A stretch of 64,000 nucleotides of DNA from an uncultured Rickettsiales bacterium (GCA_944391075.1 CALXSG010000004.1:10445-74444); one strand, 5' to 3'; counted from the stretch's first letter, positions 25,129 through 60,667 are shown. The notes: generated by a model not told the origin, from the letters alone. Made by a program: numbers and translations.

Positions 25129-28100
25129 TTATCCTTTATCCTGTTCTTTTTGCGCTGCAACTTTTTCTCTTAACTTTGACGTAGAAGATTTATTGACAAT
25201 CTTTTTTACAGCACCAACAGTAAGACGTTTTACAAATAATACCGTCTGCACTGCTTTTCCAGCAACAACCATTGGATTTACATCAGCACCCAAACCTGGT
25301 ATAGCAGCACTACCTGTTAAAGTTGAGGCTATTCTAGGAACTCTATTTAACATATTATCTAAAACCACTACTAAAATAAGAATAGAAAGTAAAGTAATAA
25401 CATCGTTAATTACTACATCTGTAATACGAAAAATAATACCAAATACCAAATCAGTGCTAATATTTGACATTAAACACAATGGGCTATTACGCTTTATATC
25501 AATAATTTTATCACCTGATTTACAATTTTTTAGATCTGCATTACCTTTAAGTTTATCTAATACATTAATCCATATCTTTTGCATTTCAAGTTCTTTTTGT
25601 TCTTGTGATATTCCCTGTTTTTCTAGATCATTTATTTCTGTATTTAAATAATATGAAACGAAAGCATTTCGTTTACTTGTATAAGCAACAAGATCACCCG
25701 TATCTTGATCATAGCATGCAAAACCACAAACCAATTCTTTATTAGGACCTGAACCAGTGAAAAGTCCACTACCTAACATAAAATTATCAATAATCATAAT
25801 AGATATAGAAACAAATGCTACCATTACAAATGGCTGAATAGCATAACCTAATAAATTTTTAAACCATTTCTGAAAAATTCCATTAAATTTTTTAAATAAT
25901 AATGTTGGAATAATAATTGGAGATAAAAATAATAGTATAGTAATTGCAATCATAGAAGCTACATAAATATATACTATTTTTAATGCAAATATAAATAAAG
26001 TTATTCCTAAAAACATTGAAATAAAACCAATAAATAAACCTAGACCAAATGGCCATATAATAGATAATACATATAATTTAACTATTCCCCAACCAGTACC
26101 ATTGTCAAATGCTGAATAGCCAAAATATTTAGCAATTTTACAATCTAGAGCATCAAAGAAAGATACATATCGTCTATCGCTTGGATAATCATCATAGTTA
26201 TTATCATATTTAGCTATAGCCTCAATAATTTCAGGAGAATCATCTGTAAATCTTAAACTTGTAATATCCCCAAAATAACAACCATCATCTCTAACAAGAT
26301 TACCATGTTCATCAACAAGAGTTTCAAAACCTATCTTTGAAACAGTTGAAAATAATAAATCGTTTAAAGCATAAGTAAATTTAAATATTAAATTATACCA
26401 TGATGTATTTACTGTTAATGCTACAATAAAACTAATTTTTACTATTAACATAACAATATCATATCTACTGCCAAGAGCACCACCTTTTATTAAAACATTA
26501 TAACCATATAAAGATATTGCAAAAGCAATAAACATATATGTAATATTTTTAGTATATCTGATAATATCTTGTAATGGATGTTTGTATGAATCAACACCAT
26601 CTGAAGAAACAATATTAGTATCAAATTCTTGCCCAGCTTTAAATATTTCTCCACTTTCACATTCATTCATATGATTAGGAGTTTCTGATATAACCTTACA
26701 TCTAGTATGACCGGCTTTATTTAATAATAAATTTTTCATAGTTTCAACCACACATTCAACAGCAGGAGCAAATATTGTTTTTGGATACAAATCAACAGCA
26801 CGATTATAAGCAGAATATGAAGCATATCCTGTTGTATTATGAGAATTACCAACTAAATTAAGGCACGCTTTATCTAAATATGGTGAATATGTATTAGCAT
26901 AAATAAATTCAATATTATTATTGCTAACTTGAGTGCAATGTCTATTATATTGAAAGAAATTTTTATTTTTACCTTCACATAATGGATAAACTACACCATT
27001 ATCATTACAATCATCTTTATCATATTGTATTTCGCAATTAGCATAATCTCCGCTATCTTGACACGCCTTCATACTATCTTCATTTGGTATTCTTTCAAAA
27101 ACAGATGTAGCATAATCAGAACCACCTTCTACATTAACATTGTCAGGACATAAATTATATGTTTTAATACAATATCTATTAGTATTTTCTACTTCACTAT
27201 CTACAGTAAAGTTTTTAAATACTTTAAATTTGATATCATCTACTTTACATTCATTATCATAGATTGAACAAAATGTAGCTAAATTATTTTTTTCATTTTT
27301 ATATATACAAACACTTTGTTGCGCCTTTAAACAACACTGATACGCTATATCGAATGCATCACCAGTTTTTGATCTTTTTTCTAAATATCTTTCACATAAA
27401 TAATTACCATAATCATAACCTCTCATATAATATGTTTGATAAGCTTGTTCTTCACCTCTAAAAATATCATAATTCTTAGCTTCAGGTCTTGGATCTATAC
27501 AAGCATAATTAATAATCTCTTCACCATCATACATATTTTCTCTAAACACTCTATCATTCTGTGTAAAATAATTACCACCATCAACAGGTTGACAGGTATT
27601 ATCATTATTACCTTTTTGACATCTTTCTAATGCCACTACACCATCACAATCATTAATATTTCTTACACATTTATTTACTTCAAATTTATATGAGCCATTA
27701 AATGCTCCTCGAGTTGGATAATATTTTTTGATATTAGCAAATGCTGAACAATTACCAGCTTCACAACCTCCTGCTTTATTATAATCATTAATAGCTTGCT
27801 CATTACCATAAGTTAACCAATTTGCACCACATATTTTAAAATTTAAAAGAACACTCTGCGATATACTAAATTTATCCTTAAAATCAAATCCACCAAAACT
27901 CTGATTCCACCAACAATATCCATTATCCATTTCCCATTTTGAATTATCTTTTTCGAATATTATCGGCTCTCCACTTACCCAATTATACCCAATTATTTTA
28001 AAACTCGATGAAAATTTTAGTCCATCTGAACCATCCTCAGTAACTTCATATACTTGTTCAAGTGGTCTACTCAAATTAAGATCAGCAAAAGTATCAGAAA

Positions 28101-28158
28101 TATTACTATATAAAGTTAAACAAATAATAAAAATAATTTTATAAATATTTTTTATCAT
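25129..28158 (-). CDS. VirB6/TrbL-like T4SS inner-membrane protein with a Cys-rich N-terminal ectodomain (~1009 aa from the preferred start)
   Basis: Signal peptide MIKNIYKIIFIICLTLYSNISDTFA. The polytopic region contains LFLSPIIIPTLLFKKFNGIFQKWFKNLLGYAIQP, a VirB6/TrbL hallmark. The preferred ATG at 28158 overlaps the virB4 TGA as ATGA. The ORF track extends to 28194. Confidence 0.82.
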   Translation of the reverse strand: MIKNIYKIIFIICLTLYSNISDTFADLNLSRPLEQVYEVTEDGSDGLKFSSSFKIIGYNWVSGEPIIFEKDNSKWEMDNGYCWWNQSFGGFDFKDKFSISQSVLLNFKICGANWLTYGNEQAINDYNKAGGCEAGNCSAFANIKKYYPTRGAFNGSYKFEVNKCVRNINDCDGVVALERCQKGNNDNTCQPVDGGNYFTQNDRVFRENMYDGEEIINYACIDPRPEAKNYDIFRGEEQAYQTYYMRGYDYGNYLCERYLEKRSKTGDAFDIAYQCCLKAQQSVCIYKNEKNNLATFCSIYDNECKVDDIKFKVFKNFTVDSEVENTNRYCIKTYNLCPDNVNVEGGSDYATSVFERIPNEDSMKACQDSGDYANCEIQYDKDDCNDNGVVYPLCEGKNKNFFQYNRHCTQVSNNNIEFIYANTYSPYLDKACLNLVGNSHNTTGYASYSAYNRAVDLYPKTIFAPAVECVVETMKNLLLNKAGHTRCKVISETPNHMNECESGEIFKAGQEFDTNIVSSDGVDSYKHPLQDIIRYTKNITYMFIAFAISLYGYNVLIKGGALGSRYDIVMLIVKISFIVALTVNTSWYNLIFKFTYALNDLLFSTVSKIGFETLVDEHGNLVRDDGCYFGDITSLRFTDDSPEIIEAIAKYDNNYDDYPSDRRYVSFFDALDCKIAKYFGYSAFDNGTGWGIVKLYVLSIIWPFGLGLFIGFISMFLGITLFIFALKIVYIYVASMIAITILLFLSPIIIPTLLFKKFNGIFQKWFKNLLGYAIQPFVMVAFVSISIMIIDNFMLGSGLFTGSGPNKELVCGFACYDQDTGDLVAYTSKRNAFVSYYLNTEINDLEKQGISQEQKELEMQKIWINVLDKLKGNADLKNCKSGDKIIDIKRNSPLCLMSNISTDLVFGIIFRITDVVINDVITLLSILILVVVLDNMLNRVPRIASTLTGSAAIPGLGADVNPMVVAGKAVQTVLFVKRLTVGAVKKIVNKSSTSKLREKVAAQKEQDKG

Positions 28159-30548
28159 AACTTCCTCACTCTTTTGTAAAATATTGGCAACCAATCTTCT
28201 GGTTTATCACTTTTTATTTCTTCAATAATTTGATCAAGTAATAAAACAGTTTCAGCTCTTCCAGATAATACATTTATTACATCTGTCATACCTGATAAAT
28301 CAATTTTTGCAACAACACCACTATTATCTTGTTTAATTAAAAAATATCTACTACCGGGATCAATACTCTTTATAAGTTGAAATTCTCTTGCTGATAGCAT
28401 AAATACACTTCTATAAGCTTCTGTAGCTCTTAAATTAGGTAAATAAATTTGAGTAGCCGTTTGTTGAACAAGTGTATCAGAAATAGCACTTTTTGTGGCA
28501 TCTTCAACCGATTGTGTAGCAAAGACAACAAACGCATTTAACTTTCTTAAAACTTTTAACCAATCCTTAATTCTAGGTGCAAAAACAGGATTATCAATTA
28601 ATGCCCAAGCCTCATCAAGAATAATCATTGTAGGTGTTCCATCTAAAGAAGCATTAATTCTTTGAAATAAATAAAGCAAAACAGGGTTAATACTAATTTT
28701 ATCTTTTAATAATTCGCCCATTTCAAAACCAAATATCTTAGATGAAAAGAAATCAATATTATCGGTTTCATTATCAAATAATTTTGCACGTGAACCATCA
28801 GAATGCCACATTTCTAACCTTCCCGCTAATGTATCAGGACCAGAAATACCTAAGAATGGTGCTATATTTCTTAAAATTCTTTTTTTGGGTGGTAATTTAT
28901 AATTACCATTAACAGCTTCTGTAATTCTAGCCATATCACTTGCTGTAACTTTTTCACCATTAACACTTACCATACTTCTAATCCAGTCTATTAGAAAATC
29001 TTTATTTTCATTGGTTTCTGGCAGTAATAATGGATTAAAGCCAGCTGATTTACTAGTTTCTATTGTTGTATATTTACCACCCATAGCTCTAATAAATATT
29101 TCCGCACCTCTATCCTTATCAAAAAAGAACATTCTGCAATTAAATTTTTGTGCCTGTGCACATAAAAAGTTCATTGTAACTGTTTTACCACTACCAGTAG
29201 GTCCAACAATCATTGTGTGTCCAACATCCCTAACATGAAAATTAAAGAAAAATGGTGTACCTGAAACCGTATTTAAAACAGTAACAGCAGGTCCCCAATG
29301 ATTTCTTCTAATTCTACCAGAAGGATAATTATGTAAAGAGGCAAAACTTGCTAGATTTAATGTATTTATTGTAGCTGCTCTTACAACATATTGGAAATTT
29401 CCAGGCAACTGTGCCCAAAATACAGCTTCCATATTCATTCTTTCTCTAACAGCATTTATACCCATATTAGAAAATTCTACAACAATCATTGATAAATCAT
29501 TCTCAATTGATTTTATGGTATCATCTATACACATAACCGTCATATGATGCTTTCCAAAAGCAAACTTACCACTCATAATTTCATCTAATGCTTGATCTAT
29601 TTCTTGAATTTGAGATACAGCAACATCTTCAGATTGAATCATTCTCCTTTGTTGTAATTGTATACTACTAATAGCAATTGTTCTATTAACAAATTTAAAT
29701 GATTGTGAAATAATAAATTCAAATGGCAATTGCAAAAAACCATCCATCATACCAGCATTTGTTGCATTTCTATATTCTTTTAAAGAAACCATACCACCAT
29801 ATTTAGTTTCAAATGGCATTTTTACTTCAAAATTTTTAGCGCCAAAATATATTCTATTGGTTGGCAAATAAGATGCAAAACCATATGGAATAAATCTATA
29901 ATTTTGTACATAACCGCAATTAACTATACTTCCTAAAAAATTACATATTTCTGAGAAAATACCATCACTGGTTTCCACAACATCAAGTAATTCAGCACCA
30001 TAATTTGATAGACCATTCAAAATTCTAGATGTCAATTCTTCTATTTCACTAAAATTTTCTCTCATATTTTTGATTCTAGCATTTTCATCAGCTTTATTTC
30101 GAAGTCTTCTGGCAAAAGTCGCAACTTTTGCTAAACCGGCTTTGTCATCCATTCTTATAATACTAACATACTCTTCATTAGCAAAACTTCTATCACCATC
30201 ATGCTTGCGCTTCCATTCTTCATTTACTTTTTTTGCAAAAATATTTGTCATCTCTCCTTCTGGAAAAGCCTCTTTTCTTCGTCTAATTGTATGAAAATAA
30301 AGCCCTAAATTACCAGAAGCCATACTTTTAAATAAATTATTTCTATGATTCTTCTTTATATCTATTTCTTCGTCATCAGCAGTTTCAAAAGAAAAACCTT
30401 TAATTCTTACAACTCTTAATAAGGCATTATCTTTCATTAAAATGGTATTAGAATTCCAAAAACATTTATATGGTATGTAAATGGAAGATGAAGTTTCCCA
30501 TTTGAAATATTTATTTTTAGGAGGTTGTATAATGCCTAATTTCATCAA
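28155..30548 (-). CDS. virB4: Type IV secretion system ATPase VirB4
   Basis: 797 aa. Walker A GPTGSGKT and Walker B MIILDEAW. Size and neighbours (virB3 upstream, virB6-like downstream) fit. Confidence 0.93.
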   Translation of the reverse strand: MMKLGIIQPPKNKYFKWETSSSIYIPYKCFWNSNTILMKDNALLRVVRIKGFSFETADDEEIDIKKNHRNNLFKSMASGNLGLYFHTIRRRKEAFPEGEMTNIFAKKVNEEWKRKHDGDRSFANEEYVSIIRMDDKAGLAKVATFARRLRNKADENARIKNMRENFSEIEELTSRILNGLSNYGAELLDVVETSDGIFSEICNFLGSIVNCGYVQNYRFIPYGFASYLPTNRIYFGAKNFEVKMPFETKYGGMVSLKEYRNATNAGMMDGFLQLPFEFIISQSFKFVNRTIAISSIQLQQRRMIQSEDVAVSQIQEIDQALDEIMSGKFAFGKHHMTVMCIDDTIKSIENDLSMIVVEFSNMGINAVRERMNMEAVFWAQLPGNFQYVVRAATINTLNLASFASLHNYPSGRIRRNHWGPAVTVLNTVSGTPFFFNFHVRDVGHTMIVGPTGSGKTVTMNFLCAQAQKFNCRMFFFDKDRGAEIFIRAMGGKYTTIETSKSAGFNPLLLPETNENKDFLIDWIRSMVSVNGEKVTASDMARITEAVNGNYKLPPKKRILRNIAPFLGISGPDTLAGRLEMWHSDGSRAKLFDNETDNIDFFSSKIFGFEMGELLKDKISINPVLLYLFQRINASLDGTPTMIILDEAWALIDNPVFAPRIKDWLKVLRKLNAFVVFATQSVEDATKSAISDTLVQQTATQIYLPNLRATEAYRSVFMLSAREFQLIKSIDPGSRYFLIKQDNSGVVAKIDLSGMTDVINVLSGRAETVLLLDQIIEEIKSDKPEDWLPIFYKRVRKL

Positions 30549-30561
30549 TTTGTCCCATTAA

Positions 30562-30861
30562 TTAATAAAGGTCATAAGAATTTGTTCCATTATAAAATGT
30601 CCTGTTTTTACATCTCATAAAATTGCTACTTTTCATAATAACAATCTCTAAAGCTAGTGGTTCTTTTAAACAAATTATATAAGCAATACCGTGTAAAAGT
30701 GGTAACATAACAATTAAATAAATAAATTTATTTGTCATCACAAATAGTAATAATGAACCTAGAATATTTAAAGAAGCAAACACATAGGACACACCAAGAA
30801 TCATACTTGATCTGGTCAAACCTAAGAACAATGAATCAACTTCTATTTTTCCATCAGCCAT
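30562..30861 (-). CDS. virB3: Type IV secretion system protein VirB3
   Basis: From ATG 30861: MADGKIEVDSLFLGLTRSSMILGVSY..., with two TM helices. This is typical VirB3 size and motif (LF.GLTRP.M.GV). The longer ORF-track start at 30954 adds only an I/L/F-rich extension. Confidence 0.8.
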   Translation of the reverse strand: MADGKIEVDSLFLGLTRSSMILGVSYVFASLNILGSLLLFVMTNKFIYLIVMLPLLHGIAYIICLKEPLALEIVIMKSSNFMRCKNRTFYNGTNSYDLY

Positions 30862-31025
30862 AAAAAATATAACGTTATATAATATATATATTAACAAGTA
30901 TAAAACTAAAATCAAGAAAAAAACAAAGATATTTTTGTTTTTTAAAAAAATCAAACTATATAAAAGTGTTGCAATATTAAAAAATAAAATTAAAATTATA
31001 GTAATTTGAATGAATAAGGAAAAAA

Positions 31026-32252
31026 ATGGATAAAGTAAATGTAGCTGTCTTTTTTGGTGGAAAATCTTTTGAACACGATGTTAGTATTTTAACTGGTTTA
31101 GAAGCATGCTACGCATTAGATACTGAAAAATATAATTTAATACCTGTTTATGTTGATTTAAATAATCATTTTTGGACAGGTGATGCATTACTTGATAAAA
31201 ATTTTTACCCTTTAAATAATTGGGGTAAAAAATTGGTTAACGAAGCAAAACTTATAATTGGAGAAGACAAACCAACCTTAGAGATTAAAAAACAAGGTAT
31301 GTTTGCAAAAACAACAGAATATATTACATTTGATGTAGCTTTATTAGCATTTCATGGTGAATATGGTGAAAATGGCCCAATGCAAGGTTTATTTGAAGTA
31401 GCTAATATTCCATATACAGGTTGCAGAACACTTTCTGCTGCTGTTTGTATGAATAAATCAATGGCAAAAACCATTGTTGCATCAGTTGGAGTTCCCGTTT
31501 TACCTGAAATATTAATCAAAAAACCAACAAATAATGACTTCTTTGATATTAATGAATTTACAAAAGAAATGCCATTTGATTTTCCTGTTATAGTTAAACC
31601 AGTAGCATTAGGAAGTAGCGTTGGTGTTAGTAAAGCAAATAATAAAGATGAATTAAATGTTTCTGTTCTTCAAGTCTTTACACTTGGTGAAGACGCTTTA
31701 ATTGAACCATTTGTTGAAAATTTAGAAGAATATAATATTTCTGTTACAAAAGCATTAGATGAAACTATCAAACATTCAATTATTGAACATCCATTAAAGA
31801 AAAATGCTGAATTTTTAGGTTTTGTTGAAAAATATTTATCTAACTCAGGCACAAAAGGTGGTGTTAAAAAAGCTGGAAGTAAATTAATGTCAAATAATGA
31901 AAAGCTTGGCATGATTTCTTTAACACGCGACTTTACAATCAAAGAATTAACCGATAAACAAAAAGAAGATATTACAAATTGGGCATTAAATGCTTTTGAA
32001 GCATTAGAATGCAATGGTATTGTAAGAATTGACTTTATGTATAATTCAAAGACAAAAGAATTCTATTTTACAGAAGCAAATACAATTCCTGGTTCTTTTG
32101 CTTATTACTTATGGGAAGCAAGCGAACCTAGCTATACATATACAGATTTAATGACAGCTTTAATTAATGAAGCACTTGAATTGCAAAAAACTAAAAAGGG
32201 AGATATAATCTTATCGTCATCTAAATCTAGTATATTTAAGGAGAAAGAATAA
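31026..32252 (+). CDS. ddl: D-alanine--D-alanine ligase family ATP-grasp enzyme (long form with insertion)
   Basis: VAVFFGGKSFEHDVSILTG, AFHGEYGENGPMQGLFE..IPYTG, VKPVALGSSVGVSK and EANTIPG motifs match Ddl. An extra ~40-aa K/G/S-rich insert lies before the C-terminal lobe. Confidence 0.8.
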   Translation: MDKVNVAVFFGGKSFEHDVSILTGLEACYALDTEKYNLIPVYVDLNNHFWTGDALLDKNFYPLNNWGKKLVNEAKLIIGEDKPTLEIKKQGMFAKTTEYITFDVALLAFHGEYGENGPMQGLFEVANIPYTGCRTLSAAVCMNKSMAKTIVASVGVPVLPEILIKKPTNNDFFDINEFTKEMPFDFPVIVKPVALGSSVGVSKANNKDELNVSVLQVFTLGEDALIEPFVENLEEYNISVTKALDETIKHSIIEHPLKKNAEFLGFVEKYLSNSGTKGGVKKAGSKLMSNNEKLGMISLTRDFTIKELTDKQKEDITNWALNAFEALECNGIVRIDFMYNSKTKEFYFTEANTIPGSFAYYLWEASEPSYTYTDLMTALINEALELQKTKKGDIILSSSKSSIFKEKE

Positions 32253-32253
32253 T

Positions 32254-32988
32254 ATGTATTCAACAAAGCTTGAAGGAAAAGAAAATACTAAACTAAGAAT
32301 CATATGGCTACATGGTTGGGGTGCTGATCATAAAGCCATGATTCCTTTAGCTACATATTTTATAAATCAAGCTGAAAATTATCTTGTTGATTTGCCTGGT
32401 TTTGGACAAACAAAAGCTCCTGAAAAATCATGTGGTAGTGAATGGTATGCTGATCAGGTTGCTAGTTTTATTGAATCATTACCTAAAAAGAAAACCGTAA
32501 TTATTGGGCATTCTAATGGTGGTAGAATTACTATTTCCTTAGCAAGTAAATATAATAATCTTGTAGATGGTATTGTTTTAATTAATGGAGCTGGTATTCC
32601 ACCAAAAAGAAATATTTTCTTTAAATTTTATTCATGGAGTATCAAAACTTTTGGACCAACACTAAAAAAAATATTTCCATTTTTAAAAAAAATATCATTA
32701 AGTTCCACTGATTATAAAAATGCCAATGGAGTTATGAAAGAAGTTTTTTTAAATGTAATTAAAGAAGATCTTAGAGAAAAAGCAAAAAATATCACTGTAC
32801 CAACACTTTTAATTTACGGAGAAATTGATAGAGATACACCTGTATATATGGGTGAAGAATACAATGAAAGTATTAAAGGTTCTATATTAAAAATAATTCA
32901 AGATGCAGGACATTGGGGTCCTCTTATTGAATTTAGAACAAAAACTCATCACATTATTACAAACTTTATAAGGGAGAAACTATGTTAA
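32254..32988 (+). CDS. Alpha/beta-fold hydrolase
   Basis: Nucleophile elbow GHSNGG, late acidic residue (GEIDRDTP) and His (DAGHWGP). The start lies 2 nt after the ddl stop. Confidence 0.75.
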   Translation: MYSTKLEGKENTKLRIIWLHGWGADHKAMIPLATYFINQAENYLVDLPGFGQTKAPEKSCGSEWYADQVASFIESLPKKKTVIIGHSNGGRITISLASKYNNLVDGIVLINGAGIPPKRNIFFKFYSWSIKTFGPTLKKIFPFLKKISLSSTDYKNANGVMKEVFLNVIKEDLREKAKNITVPTLLIYGEIDRDTPVYMGEEYNESIKGSILKIIQDAGHWGPLIEFRTKTHHIITNFIREKLC

Positions 32989-34541
32989 GCTTAGATGTTT
33001 ATATTTTTGCTATTGCAAATTTTTTATTCTGTTATGTTAGATCAAAATTCTTAATGTTATTCTTTCAACAAGAAGAATATCGTAATACATGGTTTCTAAA
33101 ATATATTTTTAGACGTGCCGAATTGATTGATAAAAAATTAACATTTGGTTTATTATTAATATGGGTTTTATCTCTTGAATTTCCAATTTTAGTATGGTTA
33201 ATGCTACCATTATTCTTAGTATTTATGGTTAGTGAATACATTTTCTTAACAAAAGCAAAGAAAAAACTAAATATGACTTCAAGAGTTAAAAGAATATTAT
33301 TTATGAACTCATTATTAGTTGCCTTTACTATTGGCCTTTGTACAATAGAATATACTCAGTTAATGACAGCTATAATAATAGCTCAATTATTACCATTCTT
33401 ATTAATATTAAGTAATATCATTTTAAGTCCATTCGAAAATAGTATACAAAATAAGTTTAAAAATGAAGCAATTAAAAAAATTCAACAATTAAATCCAATA
33501 GTAATTGGTATTACAGGTTCATATGGCAAAACATCTACGAAATATATATTAGCACATATATTATCATCTAATTTGCCTACTTTATGGACTCCAGGCAGTG
33601 TTAATACAGAAATGGGAATTACAAGAATCATTAGAGAACAATTAAAACCAGAACATAAGTATTTTATTGTTGAAATGGGAGCTTATTTCAAAGGTTCAAT
33701 AGAAAAATTGTGTAAATTAACAAATCCACGACACGGTATTATTACATCAATAGGACAAGCACATTATGAACATTTTAAAACGCAAGAAACAATAGCTTCT
33801 GCTAAATTTGAATTGGGAGAATGGGTTAAGAAAAATAATGGTATTTTAGTTATAAATGCCGATCAAATTGAAGAAAGATTTATACCTATGAACATGCCAT
33901 TAGTAAAAGTTGGAACAAGTTATGATACTTATATATCAAATGTTAATCAATCTGTAGATGGTTTAAGCTTTAATTTCCATACAGATGGTGAAACATATGA
34001 TGTATTTACTCCAATCTATGGTGAACATCAAGCATCTAATATTGCTATTGCTATTGAAATGGCTTTAAAACTTGGTATGTCAATAAATACAATATTAGCT
34101 GCTTTAAAAACTCTTCCACAAATTAATCATAGATTACAGGTTTTACATAAAGACAACGATATTACAATGATTGATGATGCTTATAATTCAAATATTGATG
34201 GCTTTAAATCTGGTCTTAATTTATTACAAACATTAAGAAAGACAAGAAGAATTTTAGTAACACCTGGAATGGTTGAATTAGGAAAATTACATAATGACTT
34301 ACATTATGAAATTGGAAAATATGCAGGCGAAAGAGTTGATATAGCTGTTATAGTTAGACCTGATAGAATACCGACATTCATAAAAGGTTTTACAGAAACA
34401 GCATTACAACAAACACAATTAATTGAAGCTGATTCTTTCCACGATGTACAAGTATGGTTAGACAAAAATTTACAACCTGGTGATGTTGTATTACTAGAAA
34501 ATGATTTAACTGATATTTATGAAAGTAAAAAAAGCTTATAA
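32982..34541 (+). CDS. Membrane-anchored Mur ligase family protein (MurF-like catalytic and C-terminal domains)
   Basis: The first ~150 aa contain about 4 hydrophobic helices. Then come the P-loop GITGSYGKTSTK, IDDAYNSNIDGF and TPGMVELGKLHNDLH motifs, as in MurF. Overlaps the hydrolase gene by 7 nt. Confidence 0.75.
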   Translation: MLSLDVYIFAIANFLFCYVRSKFLMLFFQQEEYRNTWFLKYIFRRAELIDKKLTFGLLLIWVLSLEFPILVWLMLPLFLVFMVSEYIFLTKAKKKLNMTSRVKRILFMNSLLVAFTIGLCTIEYTQLMTAIIIAQLLPFLLILSNIILSPFENSIQNKFKNEAIKKIQQLNPIVIGITGSYGKTSTKYILAHILSSNLPTLWTPGSVNTEMGITRIIREQLKPEHKYFIVEMGAYFKGSIEKLCKLTNPRHGIITSIGQAHYEHFKTQETIASAKFELGEWVKKNNGILVINADQIEERFIPMNMPLVKVGTSYDTYISNVNQSVDGLSFNFHTDGETYDVFTPIYGEHQASNIAIAIEMALKLGMSINTILAALKTLPQINHRLQVLHKDNDITMIDDAYNSNIDGFKSGLNLLQTLRKTRRILVTPGMVELGKLHNDLHYEIGKYAGERVDIAVIVRPDRIPTFIKGFTETALQQTQLIEADSFHDVQVWLDKNLQPGDVVLLENDLTDIYESKKSL

Positions 34542-34546
34542 TATTT

Positions 34547-34578
34547 AAATCACTAGTTTATCTAGTGATTTTTATTAT
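34547..34578 (+). terminator. Rho-independent terminator after the ddl-hydrolase-Mur ligase operon
   Basis: 10-bp stem AAATCACTAG/CTAGTGATTT (34547-34556 and 34562-34571) with loop TTTAT, then a T-rich tail TTATTAT. Confidence 0.7.
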
Positions 34579-34593
34579 CAAAAGAGATTGAAT

Positions 34594-35532
34594 ATGATAG
34601 ATATAGATTTAATACATAAATATTTTCCAAAGATAGAAATTAATGATACAAAATTAATTACAGAAGGTTGGGAAAGTGATATATTAGTTGTAAATAACGA
34701 ATATGTTTTTAGATTTCCAAAAGAAAATAATAGATTTGATTGCGTTTATGAAAAAGAAAAAATTATAACTGATAATATTAGAAAATTTATATCAACAGAA
34801 ATTTCAAATATTCAAATATATAAACACAAAGATACAATATTTACAGTTCTAAAATATATACCAGGTGAAAATCTATATCATACTACTGCCAATATAGTTG
34901 ATGACTTTTCTAATTTTTTGAAAGAAATTCACTCAGTGGATATTAAGGTTTTAAAAAAATATAAATTAGATGCTGATAATTTACCATTTTATAAATATAG
35001 ATTAAGTTTAAGTAATTTTTCATTTAATTATGATACTTTGCCCGATTTATTAAAAAAATATAATTTAGATGATGATTTTAATAATTGTGTAAATACATTC
35101 ACAGCATTTGATTACAGAGATGAAGATGATGTTTTATGCCATAATGATTTACATAAAGGAAATATTATAGTTAATAATGGAAAATTAAGTGGAATAATTG
35201 ATTTTGGTGATACTATTTATACAAACTACAATATTGAATTTATATCAATATTTAAATGGCAAGAAGAAATTATTATTGATATAAAACAAAAATATGAAGA
35301 AATTACTGAAAGAAAATTGAATATATCTTTCATAACATCTATTATTAAGATGGCTTTATATTCAAAAATTAGTTATACAGAAGGCGATATTACAAAATAC
35401 TTAAAAAGATTACAATTATTCACGGCAATAGAAGAACTATTTAAAGAAGAAAATTTATCTAACTTTGAACAAAATAGAAATAAATTAAAAGTTTTATTTA
35501 CTGATAAGATGGTTGCTAGAACTCATAAATAA
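34594..35532 (+). CDS. Phosphotransferase (APH/choline-kinase-like protein kinase fold)
   Basis: Brenner motif HNDLHKGNIIV and IDFGD. ATG at 34594 (the ORF-track start at 34588 is TTG). Confidence 0.75.
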   Translation: MIDIDLIHKYFPKIEINDTKLITEGWESDILVVNNEYVFRFPKENNRFDCVYEKEKIITDNIRKFISTEISNIQIYKHKDTIFTVLKYIPGENLYHTTANIVDDFSNFLKEIHSVDIKVLKKYKLDADNLPFYKYRLSLSNFSFNYDTLPDLLKKYNLDDDFNNCVNTFTAFDYRDEDDVLCHNDLHKGNIIVNNGKLSGIIDFGDTIYTNYNIEFISIFKWQEEIIIDIKQKYEEITERKLNISFITSIIKMALYSKISYTEGDITKYLKRLQLFTAIEELFKEENLSNFEQNRNKLKVLFTDKMVARTHK

Positions 35533-59014: not shown

Positions 59015-60667
59015 ATGAATAAAATTTTATTTAAGTACATTAAAAATATAAAAAATACAATGATAAATTTGACATTCGTTAAGTTTATATTCTTATTTAG
59101 TTTGTTTAATATAGTAGTTTATGGTTATCCAATTATTACAAAAGCTAACACTTTTTATCATAATTTCTTTATAACCATAATATTATATTCAATTTCTTAT
59201 GCTTTGTTAATTTCAGCTTTTGCTATACTTATATTTAAAAAATCATATAAAATCATATTATCTTTCATTATAATAGCTAATTCTGTAATCTTTCATTTCA
59301 TGATAACATATGGAATAGCTTTTGATGCTAATATGCTTATTAATACCACAGAAACAAATTATAATGAAGCTATTGAATTTATTAATTTAAAGTTTATTTT
59401 ATTTATTATTTTTTTAGGTATACTACCAGCTATATTTGTTTACAAAAGAATTAATATTGAATTTCCACACTATTGGAAAAATAAGATAATATTATCAATT
59501 GCCCCATTATTATTAATATTTTTGATGACTTTACCATGTCATTTATCAGAAAGAACACTAAACTTTGTTAGGGACAATCAAAGAATAACAAGCTATATAA
59601 TGCCAATAAATTATATTGAAGCAAGTATAGAATTTTGCTTTTTAAAAATTAAAAGTTATATAAATTCTTTAAACTTAATATCTATTAGTGATGATGCCAC
59701 AATAGAAGAAAAAAATTATAATAAAAATGACAAGAAAAATCTAATTGTTTTTGTTATGGGAGAATCTGCAAGAGCTAAAAATTTTTCATTAAATGGTTAT
59801 GAAAGAAATACAAATAAATTTTTAGATGATTATAAAGAAGATATAATTAGTTTCAAAAATTTTGAATCTTGCGGAACTTTCACAGCTTTAAGTCTTACTT
59901 GTACTTTTTCACATTTACCAAGAAAAGAATTTGATTATGCAAAAAGTTTTAAATATGAAAGTCTAATAGATATTTTTGATAAAGTAGGTTTTGATGTTGC
60001 ATGGAGAAGTAATAATGGTAAATGCAAAGGAGTTTGTGATAGAGTTAAAAATTCATTAGTAAAAAGTTTTGGCAATAATATTTATGATGATTTATTATTA
60101 AAAGCTTTTGATATGGACTTAAATAGATTAACAGAAAAAAATAATTTAATAGTTTTACATGGAAGAGGAAGCCACGGACCATTGTATTATAAAAGATATC
60201 CAAAAGAGTTTGAAGTATATAAACCAGCTTGCAACAATGAACTTGATAAATGTTCAGTTGAAGAAATCATTAACGCTTATGATAATAGCATATACTATAC
60301 TAGTTATATATTAAAAGAAATTATCAATAGATTAACAAAATTGGATGATAAATATAATACAATGCTAATTTTTATGTCAGATCACGGACAATCATTAGGA
60401 GAAAATGGTGTTTTTATGCATAGTGCTCCTTTTGATACAGCACCAATAGATCAAAAAAATCCTGCATTCTTTATATGGCTAAATGATGATTTTGCTAATA
60501 CATTTAATATTGACAAACAATGTTTAATATCTAAAATAAATAGTAATTTATCGCAAGACAATATTTTTCATTCAATGTTAGGAATTTTCAAGATTCATTC
60601 AAAGTATTATAATAAAAATTTAGATATTTTTAGTGATTGTATGAACATTAATAATATTACAAAATAA
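59015..60667 (+). CDS. eptA: Phosphoethanolamine--lipid A transferase (EptA family)
   Basis: N-terminal 5-TM region plus a sulfatase-fold domain. Motifs: VFVMGESARAKNFSLNGYERNTN, SCGTFTALSL (nucleophile Thr context), SDHGQSLGENG. Confidence 0.85.
   Translation: MNKILFKYIKNIKNTMINLTFVKFIFLFSLFNIVVYGYPIITKANTFYHNFFITIILYSISYALLISAFAILIFKKSYKIILSFIIIANSVIFHFMITYGIAFDANMLINTTETNYNEAIEFINLKFILFIIFLGILPAIFVYKRINIEFPHYWKNKIILSIAPLLLIFLMTLPCHLSERTLNFVRDNQRITSYIMPINYIEASIEFCFLKIKSYINSLNLISISDDATIEEKNYNKNDKKNLIVFVMGESARAKNFSLNGYERNTNKFLDDYKEDIISFKNFESCGTFTALSLTCTFSHLPRKEFDYAKSFKYESLIDIFDKVGFDVAWRSNNGKCKGVCDRVKNSLVKSFGNNIYDDLLLKAFDMDLNRLTEKNNLIVLHGRGSHGPLYYKRYPKEFEVYKPACNNELDKCSVEEIINAYDNSIYYTSYILKEIINRLTKLDDKYNTMLIFMSDHGQSLGENGVFMHSAPFDTAPIDQKNPAFFIWLNDDFANTFNIDKQCLISKINSNLSQDNIFHSMLGIFKIHSKYYNKNLDIFSDCMNINNITK

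Follow-up and report, generated by a model that had tools for sequence, protein, structure and literature searches.

A membrane-anchored MurF-type ligase encoded with a long-form D-Ala:D-Ala ligase and a serine hydrolase: a widespread gene module with a probable role in peptidoglycan precursor synthesis

Introduction

The Mur ligase steps of peptidoglycan synthesis are textbook soluble cytoplasmic reactions and long-standing targets of antibiotics. Among the described relatives of these enzymes, MurT is a Mur-ligase homologue without the uridine diphosphate (UDP)-binding N-terminal domain that acts on lipid II; it is soluble, carries a DUF1727-type C-terminal domain and, together with the glutaminase GatD, amidates D-Glu. 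PgsB represents membrane-associated Mur-ligase chemistry, and cyanophycin synthetase joins ATP-grasp and Mur-like modules. Here, we describe a three-gene operon that codes for a D-Ala:D-Ala ligase (Ddl), an alpha/beta hydrolase and a membrane-anchored MurF-type ligase, found in a 64,000-nucleotide stretch of DNA from an uncultured Rickettsiales bacterium (GCA_944391075.1, CALXSG010000004.1:10445-74444; the whole of this stretch is referred to below as the window). The operon had been proposed in an earlier reading of the window by a model (the original prediction), and open reading frames (ORFs) and Pfam domains agree with that proposal in both gene content and coordinates. It is not specific to the window: the operon is one member of a large family spread over more than 10 phyla. 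The trio apparently constitutes a widespread version of the last cytoplasmic precursor steps that had not been described before, in that a full-text literature search, of limited coverage so that an earlier description is possible, found no description of a membrane-anchored MurF or of the gene trio.

The membrane-anchored MurF-type ligase

The central and C-terminal parts of the 519-residue ligase are recognizably those of a Mur ligase, with matches to Mur_ligase_M (PF08245, E 1.4e-36) and Mur_ligase_C (PF02875, E 1e-11) in Pfam. The top NCBIfam model is that of murF (TIGR01143), whose match spans profile positions 65-403 of 418, and the models for MurC, MurD, MurE, Mpl, FolC and MurT reach at most 75 bits on the same protein, as against 225 for murF. 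The best sequence matches in the PDB are likewise MurFs (e.g., 1gg4 residues 96-380, with the E. coli MurF aligning from about residue 96 on), and so are the top Foldseek matches (e.g., 4qf5, E 2.7e-23, over about 370 columns). The MurF-type P-loop and C-terminal motifs that the original prediction had pointed out (GITGSYGKTSTK, DDAYNSN and PGMVELG) are all present and largely invariant in an alignment of the family, in which the P-loop GITGSYGKTS is invariant. Existing annotations label such proteins MurF or "Mur ligase family protein".

Ahead of these domains, the soluble N-terminal domain is replaced by about 150 residues of hydrophobic helices, as had been proposed, with five rather than about four helices counted: the hydropathy profile resolves hydrophobic segments at residues 3-20, 53-70, 72-90, 105-122 and 125-150. 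The loops at 20-52 and 91-105 are K/R-rich, which gives a predicted topology with the N-terminus outside and with both loops and the ligase domain inside. The AlphaFold2 model of the protein (predicted local distance difference test score, pLDDT, 91; predicted template modeling score 0.86) has helices at 4-30, 35-46, 51-66, 68-91, 100-123 and 126-170, after which come the two ligase domains. The membrane domain has its own invariant motifs, namely FFQQEEY, DKK, AKKKLxxTxRxKR and LP..L..N..L.P.E, all of which are predicted to lie on the cytoplasmic side. It is conserved in hundreds of proteins, with full-length homologues covering 95-100% of the ligase. Across 1.84 billion representative proteins, it was seen solely as the N-terminus of ligase-length proteins of about 510-570 residues or in shorter fragment-like sequences, and no other architecture carrying it was found there. 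No Pfam or NCBIfam model covers this domain, and none separates the membrane-MurF clade.

Conservation and distribution of the module

Neighborhood conservation, which the original prediction had suggested examining alongside the topology and phylogeny of the ligase, was counted over 83 distinct loci. The hydrolase gene lies directly upstream of that of the membrane ligase in 76 of them, and the gene for the long Ddl is adjacent to it in 65, be it upstream, divergent or downstream. Apparent hydrolase-ligase fusions in two loci (L021 and L023, from crude ORF calls) were rejected, the two matches lying in different reading frames.

Metagenome-assembled genomes of Rickettsiales and other alphaproteobacteria abound in full-length relatives of the ligase. 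A scan of one genome per species recovers them from Alphaproteobacteria (Kordiimonas, Labrys okinawensis, Blastochloris sulfoviridis and Micavibrio), Bdellovibrionota, Acidobacteriota, Chlamydiota, Melainabacteria, Cyanobacteria, Poribacteria, Omnitrophota, Bacteroidales and Clostridia, and a search with the hydrolase adds cultured Firmicutes, e.g., Evansella cellulosilytica DSM 2522. The tree within the membrane-MurF clade is mostly coherent by phylum with some transfers, such as that of Acidobacteria nested in a Hyphomicrobiales group. In the Muribaculaceae, which are gut bacteria of the Bacteroidales, a single membrane-MurF sequence cluster is represented on 762 contigs, and the membrane form looks like a core gene of this group. 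The 72,556 plasmid records searched hold no full-length membrane form, their matches being orthodox murF only, and the PADLOC anti-phage defense models gave no match for any of four proteins.

As a separate observation, the Muribaculaceae and Porphyromonadaceae loci (L043, L058, L060, L070 and L072) have ileS, a small ORF, lspA and a DUF4296 gene downstream of the module, which is a housekeeping neighborhood and not an island.

Association with cell-wall gene clusters and dipeptidases

The original prediction had placed the operon outside any division and cell wall (dcw) context. This holds for the 64-kb window: tblastn queries comprising a VanX-like protein, two orthodox MurFs and 13 proteins of the dcw cluster matched no further dcw gene there, nor another MurF or Ddl. 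It does not hold elsewhere, as the module takes up the murF slot or another place in the dcw cluster in several phyla. The position between murE and mraY, which is not that of the window ligase, is that of its orthologues in five Poribacteria genomes with the order rsmH-ftsL-ftsI-murE-(hydrolase-membrane murF-ddl)-mraY-murD-ftsW-murG-murC, where the module sits exactly in the murF slot and MurE, MurD and MurC score above their curated cut-offs. At least nine Micavibrio-like loci carry it between murB and ftsQ, and there the long Ddl takes up the ddl slot; the order is murE-(ORF of about 150 residues)-mraY-murD-ftsW-murG-murC-murB-(membrane murF, hydrolase)-ddl-ftsQAZ-lpxC. The murF slot of the seven Micavibrio-like loci whose sequence reaches the murE-mraY junction holds not murF but a conserved ORF of 149-190 residues with no Pfam or NCBIfam match (L004 19359-19823, minus strand, 154 residues; also L012, L015, L016, L019, L020 and L024). 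In Melainabacteria, murC-murB is followed by the module.

A further arrangement was seen in two alphaproteobacterial dcw clusters (L008 and L014), in which mraY comes directly after ftsI, both murE and murF being absent from that place, and a hydrolase-membrane murF pair lies 1-2 kb upstream of rsmH.

A second kind of link is to D-Ala-D-Ala dipeptidases of the VanX type (Peptidase_M15), which occur within the module in four loci, from Labrys, Blastochloris, one Melainabacteria and one Bdellovibrionales genome. In three of these, the dipeptidase gene stands directly before that of the hydrolase (L023 8329-9138, plus strand; L026 8354-9160, plus strand; L035 8147-8965, minus strand; from Labrys okinawensis, Blastochloris sulfoviridis and the Melainabacteria genome). 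The Bdellovibrionales locus (L028 4407-11521, plus strand) presents a row of five genes: those for an 810-residue tandem Ddl-Ddl fusion, a soluble 470-residue MurF and an M15 dipeptidase resembling VanX are followed by those for the hydrolase and the membrane MurF. Genes for a helix-turn-helix regulator and a class A penicillin-binding protein adjoin this row. Together, the dcw-slot contexts and the VanX links connect the module with the synthesis of peptidoglycan precursors and the metabolism of D-Ala-D-Ala, and argue that it can be the sole MurF of a cell.

The long-form Ddl and the hydrolase

The Ddl of the operon has both domains of its family (Dala_Dala_lig_N, PF01820, E 1.1e-27; Dala_Dala_lig_C, PF07478, E 2e-29). 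The residues corresponding to E15, H63, K97, K144, S150, K215, Y216, R255, D257, E270 and N272 of E. coli DdlB are all present, and each shows 100% conservation among 63 members of the family; the register of the DdlB reference agrees with HMMER alignments to 1IOV/2DLN. The Lys215-Tyr216 pair kept among them is a mark of D-Ala-D-Ala rather than D-Ala-D-Lac ligases. The K/G/S-rich insert noticed in the original prediction is borne out as a stretch of 26 residues that directly follows the KYLS motif of the omega loop and ends in a conserved G-M..S..R motif; at this point, the HMMER alignments to solved Ddl structures are interrupted. Its length varies within the family, with a Tyr-to-Arg distance of 45-68 residues as against 39 in DdlB, i.e., an insertion of about 6 to 29 residues.

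The hydrolase (Abhydrolase_1, E 5e-21) retains the HGW(G) oxyanion motif, Ser87 (in GHSxGG), Asp192 and His220, which are invariant in both a 73-sequence and a 26-sequence set, and a motif of its lid, S-x-D-Y, is also invariant. Its AlphaFold2 model (pLDDT 92.6) finds its closest folds, all of them generic matches, in small carboxylesterases, BioH, the membrane phospholipase A PlaF and ABHD6, and fold and PDB profile searches return only generic small esterases, C-C hydrolases and BioH, matches that point to no specific substrate. Among curated models, it stays below the cut-offs of EstV (109.5 bits vs. 300) and BioH (67 vs. 207). The invariant triad and the generic esterase folds suggest, as far as sequence and predicted fold can tell, a serine hydrolase or acyltransferase that is probably nearer to the esterases than to the peptidases.

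Proposed role in peptidoglycan precursor synthesis

The balance of these observations leans towards the operon being a self-contained, membrane-tethered D-Ala-D-Ala branch of peptidoglycan precursor synthesis, a reading that we hold to be probable while giving real weight to the points raised against it below. The original prediction had offered two options on equal terms, namely D-Ala-D-Ala addition in an unusual format and a distinct pathway of envelope or peptide modification; the comparative context and the Ddl residues favor the former, and the latter is less supported. In the proposed scheme, the long Ddl would make D-Ala-D-Ala, to judge from its fully conserved catalytic residues including the Lys-Tyr pair. 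The MurF-type ligase would then add the dipeptide to an N-acetylmuramic acid (MurNAc)-tripeptide precursor at the inner face of the membrane, where its five-helix domain would hold the catalytic domains; this step is suggested by the MurF-type central and C-terminal domains and by the occupancy of dcw slots in other phyla. One might further speculate that the basic and acidic cytoplasmic loops have taken over recognition of the pyrophosphate-sugar of the acceptor, that they place the ligase next to MraY, or both. The translationally coupled serine hydrolase is predicted to be catalytically competent and may act as an esterase-like partner that the module needs. For the reduced, Rickettsiales-like genome, we consider it most likely that the module supplies the working Ddl and MurF of the cell and is not an accessory pathway.

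Several observations weigh against this reading. Both ligases fall under the curated cut-offs of their top models, the MurF-type ligase with 225.3 bits as against 288.6 and the Ddl, just below, with 230.6 bits as against 245.65 (TIGR01205). The UDP-binding N-domain of orthodox MurF is absent from the membrane form, with no PF01225 match and the murF profile match starting only at position 65. In a neighbor-joining tree of the central and C-terminal domains, calculated with a small orthodox sample of three MurFs and no support values, the 84 membrane forms are monophyletic and lie apart from the orthodox MurFs. The Bdellovibrionales locus described above is the only one seen with both types of MurF together, Bacteroides finegoldii has an orthodox 432-residue murF, and orthodox ddl and murF are the norm in Bacillaceae and Hyphomicrobiales. 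The soluble MurF of that locus and the orthodox genes in relatives of carriers therefore indicate that in some carriers the module is probably a second system. Any role of the hydrolase in the scheme is putative, and the search for further ddl and murF genes covered the 64-kb window. Given the separate clade and the presence of a soluble MurF beside the membrane form in at least one locus, a function distinct from that of orthodox MurF is conceivable.

Alternative readings

The loss of the UDP-binding domain, paired with the gain of a conserved five-helix domain that bears a K/R-rich cytoplasmic loop and is exclusive to this ligase family, speaks for an enzyme that works on lipid intermediates. 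The ligase would then act not on the UDP-linked precursor but on undecaprenyl-pyrophosphate-linked MurNAc-tripeptide (lipid I or II), adding D-Ala-D-Ala as part of the normal route or in the rebuilding of trimmed stems, and the hydrolase would prepare or edit the substrate. MurT sets a precedent, and its model matches weakly at ligase residues 155-294; the soluble MurF of the Bdellovibrionales locus and the VanX-like dipeptidases also fit a second, specialized activity of this kind. However, in dcw clusters where the module stands in for murF, MraY would need to use UDP-MurNAc-tripeptide, and the closest folds of the hydrolase are carboxylesterases and not peptidases. Such lipid-level adding or repair seems unlikely to us, even if it deserves to be considered ahead of the other alternatives. 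Its bolder form is yet more doubtful: the last ligation of the stem peptide would have moved from the cytosol to the membrane and to a point after MraY, on undecaprenyl-pyrophosphate-linked MurNAc-tripeptide, with the esterase-like partner supplying a second chemical step. If this were true, the order of the peptidoglycan pathway would differ from that of the textbook.

The position of the clade apart from orthodox MurF, its scores under the curated cut-off and the altered omega loop of the Ddl could also be seen as signs of a paralogous pathway that does not concern the stem peptide, in which the ligase pair would build a D-amino-acid peptide on, or attach it to, some other acceptor of the envelope or membrane, with the hydrolase serving to trim or transfer this peptide. 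In the window, as in many other loci, the module does lie by itself at a distance from dcw genes, and it is present in taxa that are expected to have the orthodox enzymes. Against this, it fills the slots of murF and ddl within the dcw clusters of several phyla, the specificity residues of the Ddl are unchanged, the C-terminal domain of the ligase is of the MurF type, the module is kept in small Rickettsiales-like and chlamydial genomes, and the models of cyanophycin synthetase, PgsB and MurT do not fit. We therefore judge a non-peptidoglycan pathway improbable, and less likely than ligation on a lipid-linked substrate.

Finally, the chance is negligible that the ligase is an annotation artifact, i.e., a murF with a wrongly extended start among chance neighbors, for which its unusual length is the sole point: the mis-called start that the original prediction had allowed for is ruled out by the Shine-Dalgarno sequence at ATG 32982, the conserved N-terminal 150 residues with their invariant motifs, the nearly complete coverage by homologues and the confident AlphaFold2 helices, and a chance neighborhood is ruled out by the recurrence of the gene order across phyla.

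Locus layout and genomic setting

The window is AT-rich (G+C about 27%), and the neighboring genes look Rickettsiales-like by their Pfam and NCBIfam matches. The three plus-strand genes of the operon are tightly coupled and, as the original prediction had stated, diverge from virB3 on the minus strand (Table 1). The 7-nt overlap between the hydrolase and ligase genes, where an AGGGAG Shine-Dalgarno sequence precedes the ligase start, agrees with that prediction, and the gap between the Ddl and hydrolase genes is 1 nt rather than 2; an AAGGAG ribosome-binding site for the hydrolase lies within the 3' end of ddl. The hairpin and T-rich tail of the predicted terminator are likewise present, and calling it strong was generous because the stem has only 3 G-C pairs. 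The promoter-like match upstream of ddl is weak evidence, as such matches are no commoner in the region than in shuffled sequences.

Table 1. Features of the operon and of its surroundings in the window
Feature	Position	Strand	Evidence or remark
Very large ORF, 1054 residues	9397..12561	-	
Very large ORF, 1712 residues	19913..25051	-	
virB6, virB4, virB3	25129..30954	-	
Divergent intergenic region virB3(-)/ddl	30955..31025	.	Promoter-like match 30969-30996; AAGGA ribosome-binding site ahead of ATG 31026
Operon (three genes)	31026..34541	+	
Long-form D-Ala:D-Ala ligase, 408 residues	31026..32252	+	Pfam N and C domains; TIGR01205; conserved catalytic residues; adjacency to membrane MurF
Ddl omega-loop insertion, residues ~273-298, G/K/S-rich	31842..31919	+	Aligned with E. 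coli DdlB and with 63 members of the family
Alpha/beta-fold serine hydrolase, 244 residues	32254..32988	+	Pfam Abhydrolase_1/6 and Hydrolase_4; invariant triad
Membrane-anchored MurF-type ligase, whole gene	32982..34541	+	
Ligase N-terminal membrane domain, residues 1-152	32982..33437	+	Hydropathy and charge; alignment; AlphaFold2 helices
MurF-type central (ATP, P-loop GITGSYGKTS) and C-terminal (D-Ala-D-Ala-binding type) domains	33438..34541	+	Pfam; TIGR01143; PDB and Foldseek matches
Terminator-like hairpin closing the operon	34547..34578	+	Perfect 10-bp stem, 5-nt loop, T-rich tail; stem-loop proper 34547-34571
APH-family phosphotransferase	34588..35532	+	
EptA/MCR-like phosphoethanolamine--lipid A transferase	59015..60667	+	479 bits vs. 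500-bit domain cut-off

Just past the hairpin lies a gene for an APH-family phosphotransferase resembling aminoglycoside and choline kinases. It is present in same-species contigs and is not beside the module in a 79%-identical relative (L006); since it is not conserved with the module there, it was not counted as part of it. Elsewhere in the window, two very large ORFs adjoin the virB6/virB4/virB3 genes and might code for additional VirB6-like proteins or for effectors of the rvh-type secretion system. This Rickettsiales-like genome also encodes an EptA/MCR-like phosphoethanolamine--lipid A transferase, with a score slightly under its domain cut-off.

Implications

The membrane MurF clade challenges the textbook picture of the Mur ligases on three counts: the N-domain that holds the substrate is missing, the enzyme is integrated into the membrane, and it is tied genetically to a serine hydrolase and to a Ddl with a remodeled lid. 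These departures, along with the occupancy of the murF slot and the apparent core status in Muribaculaceae, therefore suggest that the end of the cytoplasmic pathway is organized differently in many bacteria. The module offers a test case for the channeling of precursors to MraY or, alternatively, for ligation on lipid intermediates, and it puts forward the hydrolase as a candidate new accessory enzyme of cell-wall synthesis. It also shows that automatic "MurF" labels conceal two architectures. Cultured carriers, such as Evansella cellulosilytica DSM 2522, Labrys okinawensis and Blastochloris sulfoviridis, allow experiments on these questions.

Comparison with known systems

Orthodox MurF (TIGR01143; e.g., E. 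coli 1GG4 and A. baumannii 4QF5) is the nearest relative of the membrane ligase in sequence and fold, sharing with it the ATP-binding central domain with the P-loop, the C-terminal domain and, in some phyla, the same position in the dcw cluster. The membrane form differs in having about 150 residues with five membrane helices and their own invariant motifs instead of the soluble UDP-binding N-domain. It differs further in forming a separate clade that scores under the curated cut-off and in being almost always preceded by a serine hydrolase. MurT of the MurT/GatD pair resembles it in lacking the N-domain and in a weak local similarity (29 bits vs. a cut-off of 800); in contrast to MurT, the window ligase has a MurF-type C-terminal domain, and no GatD is present.

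The analogies to cyanophycin synthetase and poly-gamma-glutamate synthesis drawn in the original prediction find no support in this comparison. The cyanophycin synthetase models (TIGR02068/NF010623) score 28-29 bits as against cut-offs of 850-877 and match the C-terminal domain alone; moreover, the two modules are separate genes here, and the ATP-grasp protein is a full Ddl that keeps every D-Ala:D-Ala residue. No PgsB/CapB model is among the 25 listed of the 26 NCBIfam matches of the ligase at E <= 0.01, and in place of PgsC or PgsA partners the neighbors are the Ddl, the hydrolase and the APH-type kinase. With esterases of the BioH and EstV type, the hydrolase has in common the general fold and the Ser-Asp-His triad alone.

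The Ddl is like the long-form D-Ala:D-Ala ligases (DdlA type; e.g., S. aureus 2I80) in having both domains, the full set of catalytic residues and the Lys-Tyr pair, and is set apart from them by its family-specific omega-loop insertion and its genetic link to the membrane MurF. Lastly, van-type clusters, which comprise a Ddl-like ligase, VanX and sometimes a second MurF, find a parallel in the four related loci whose modules include a VanX-type dipeptidase, one of which also has a tandem Ddl-Ddl fusion and, as its second MurF, a soluble one. The window differs from such clusters in being without VanH, VanX, VanY and a two-component regulator; its Ddl keeps the Tyr of D-Ala-D-Ala ligases, and elsewhere the module is embedded among the housekeeping genes of the dcw cluster.

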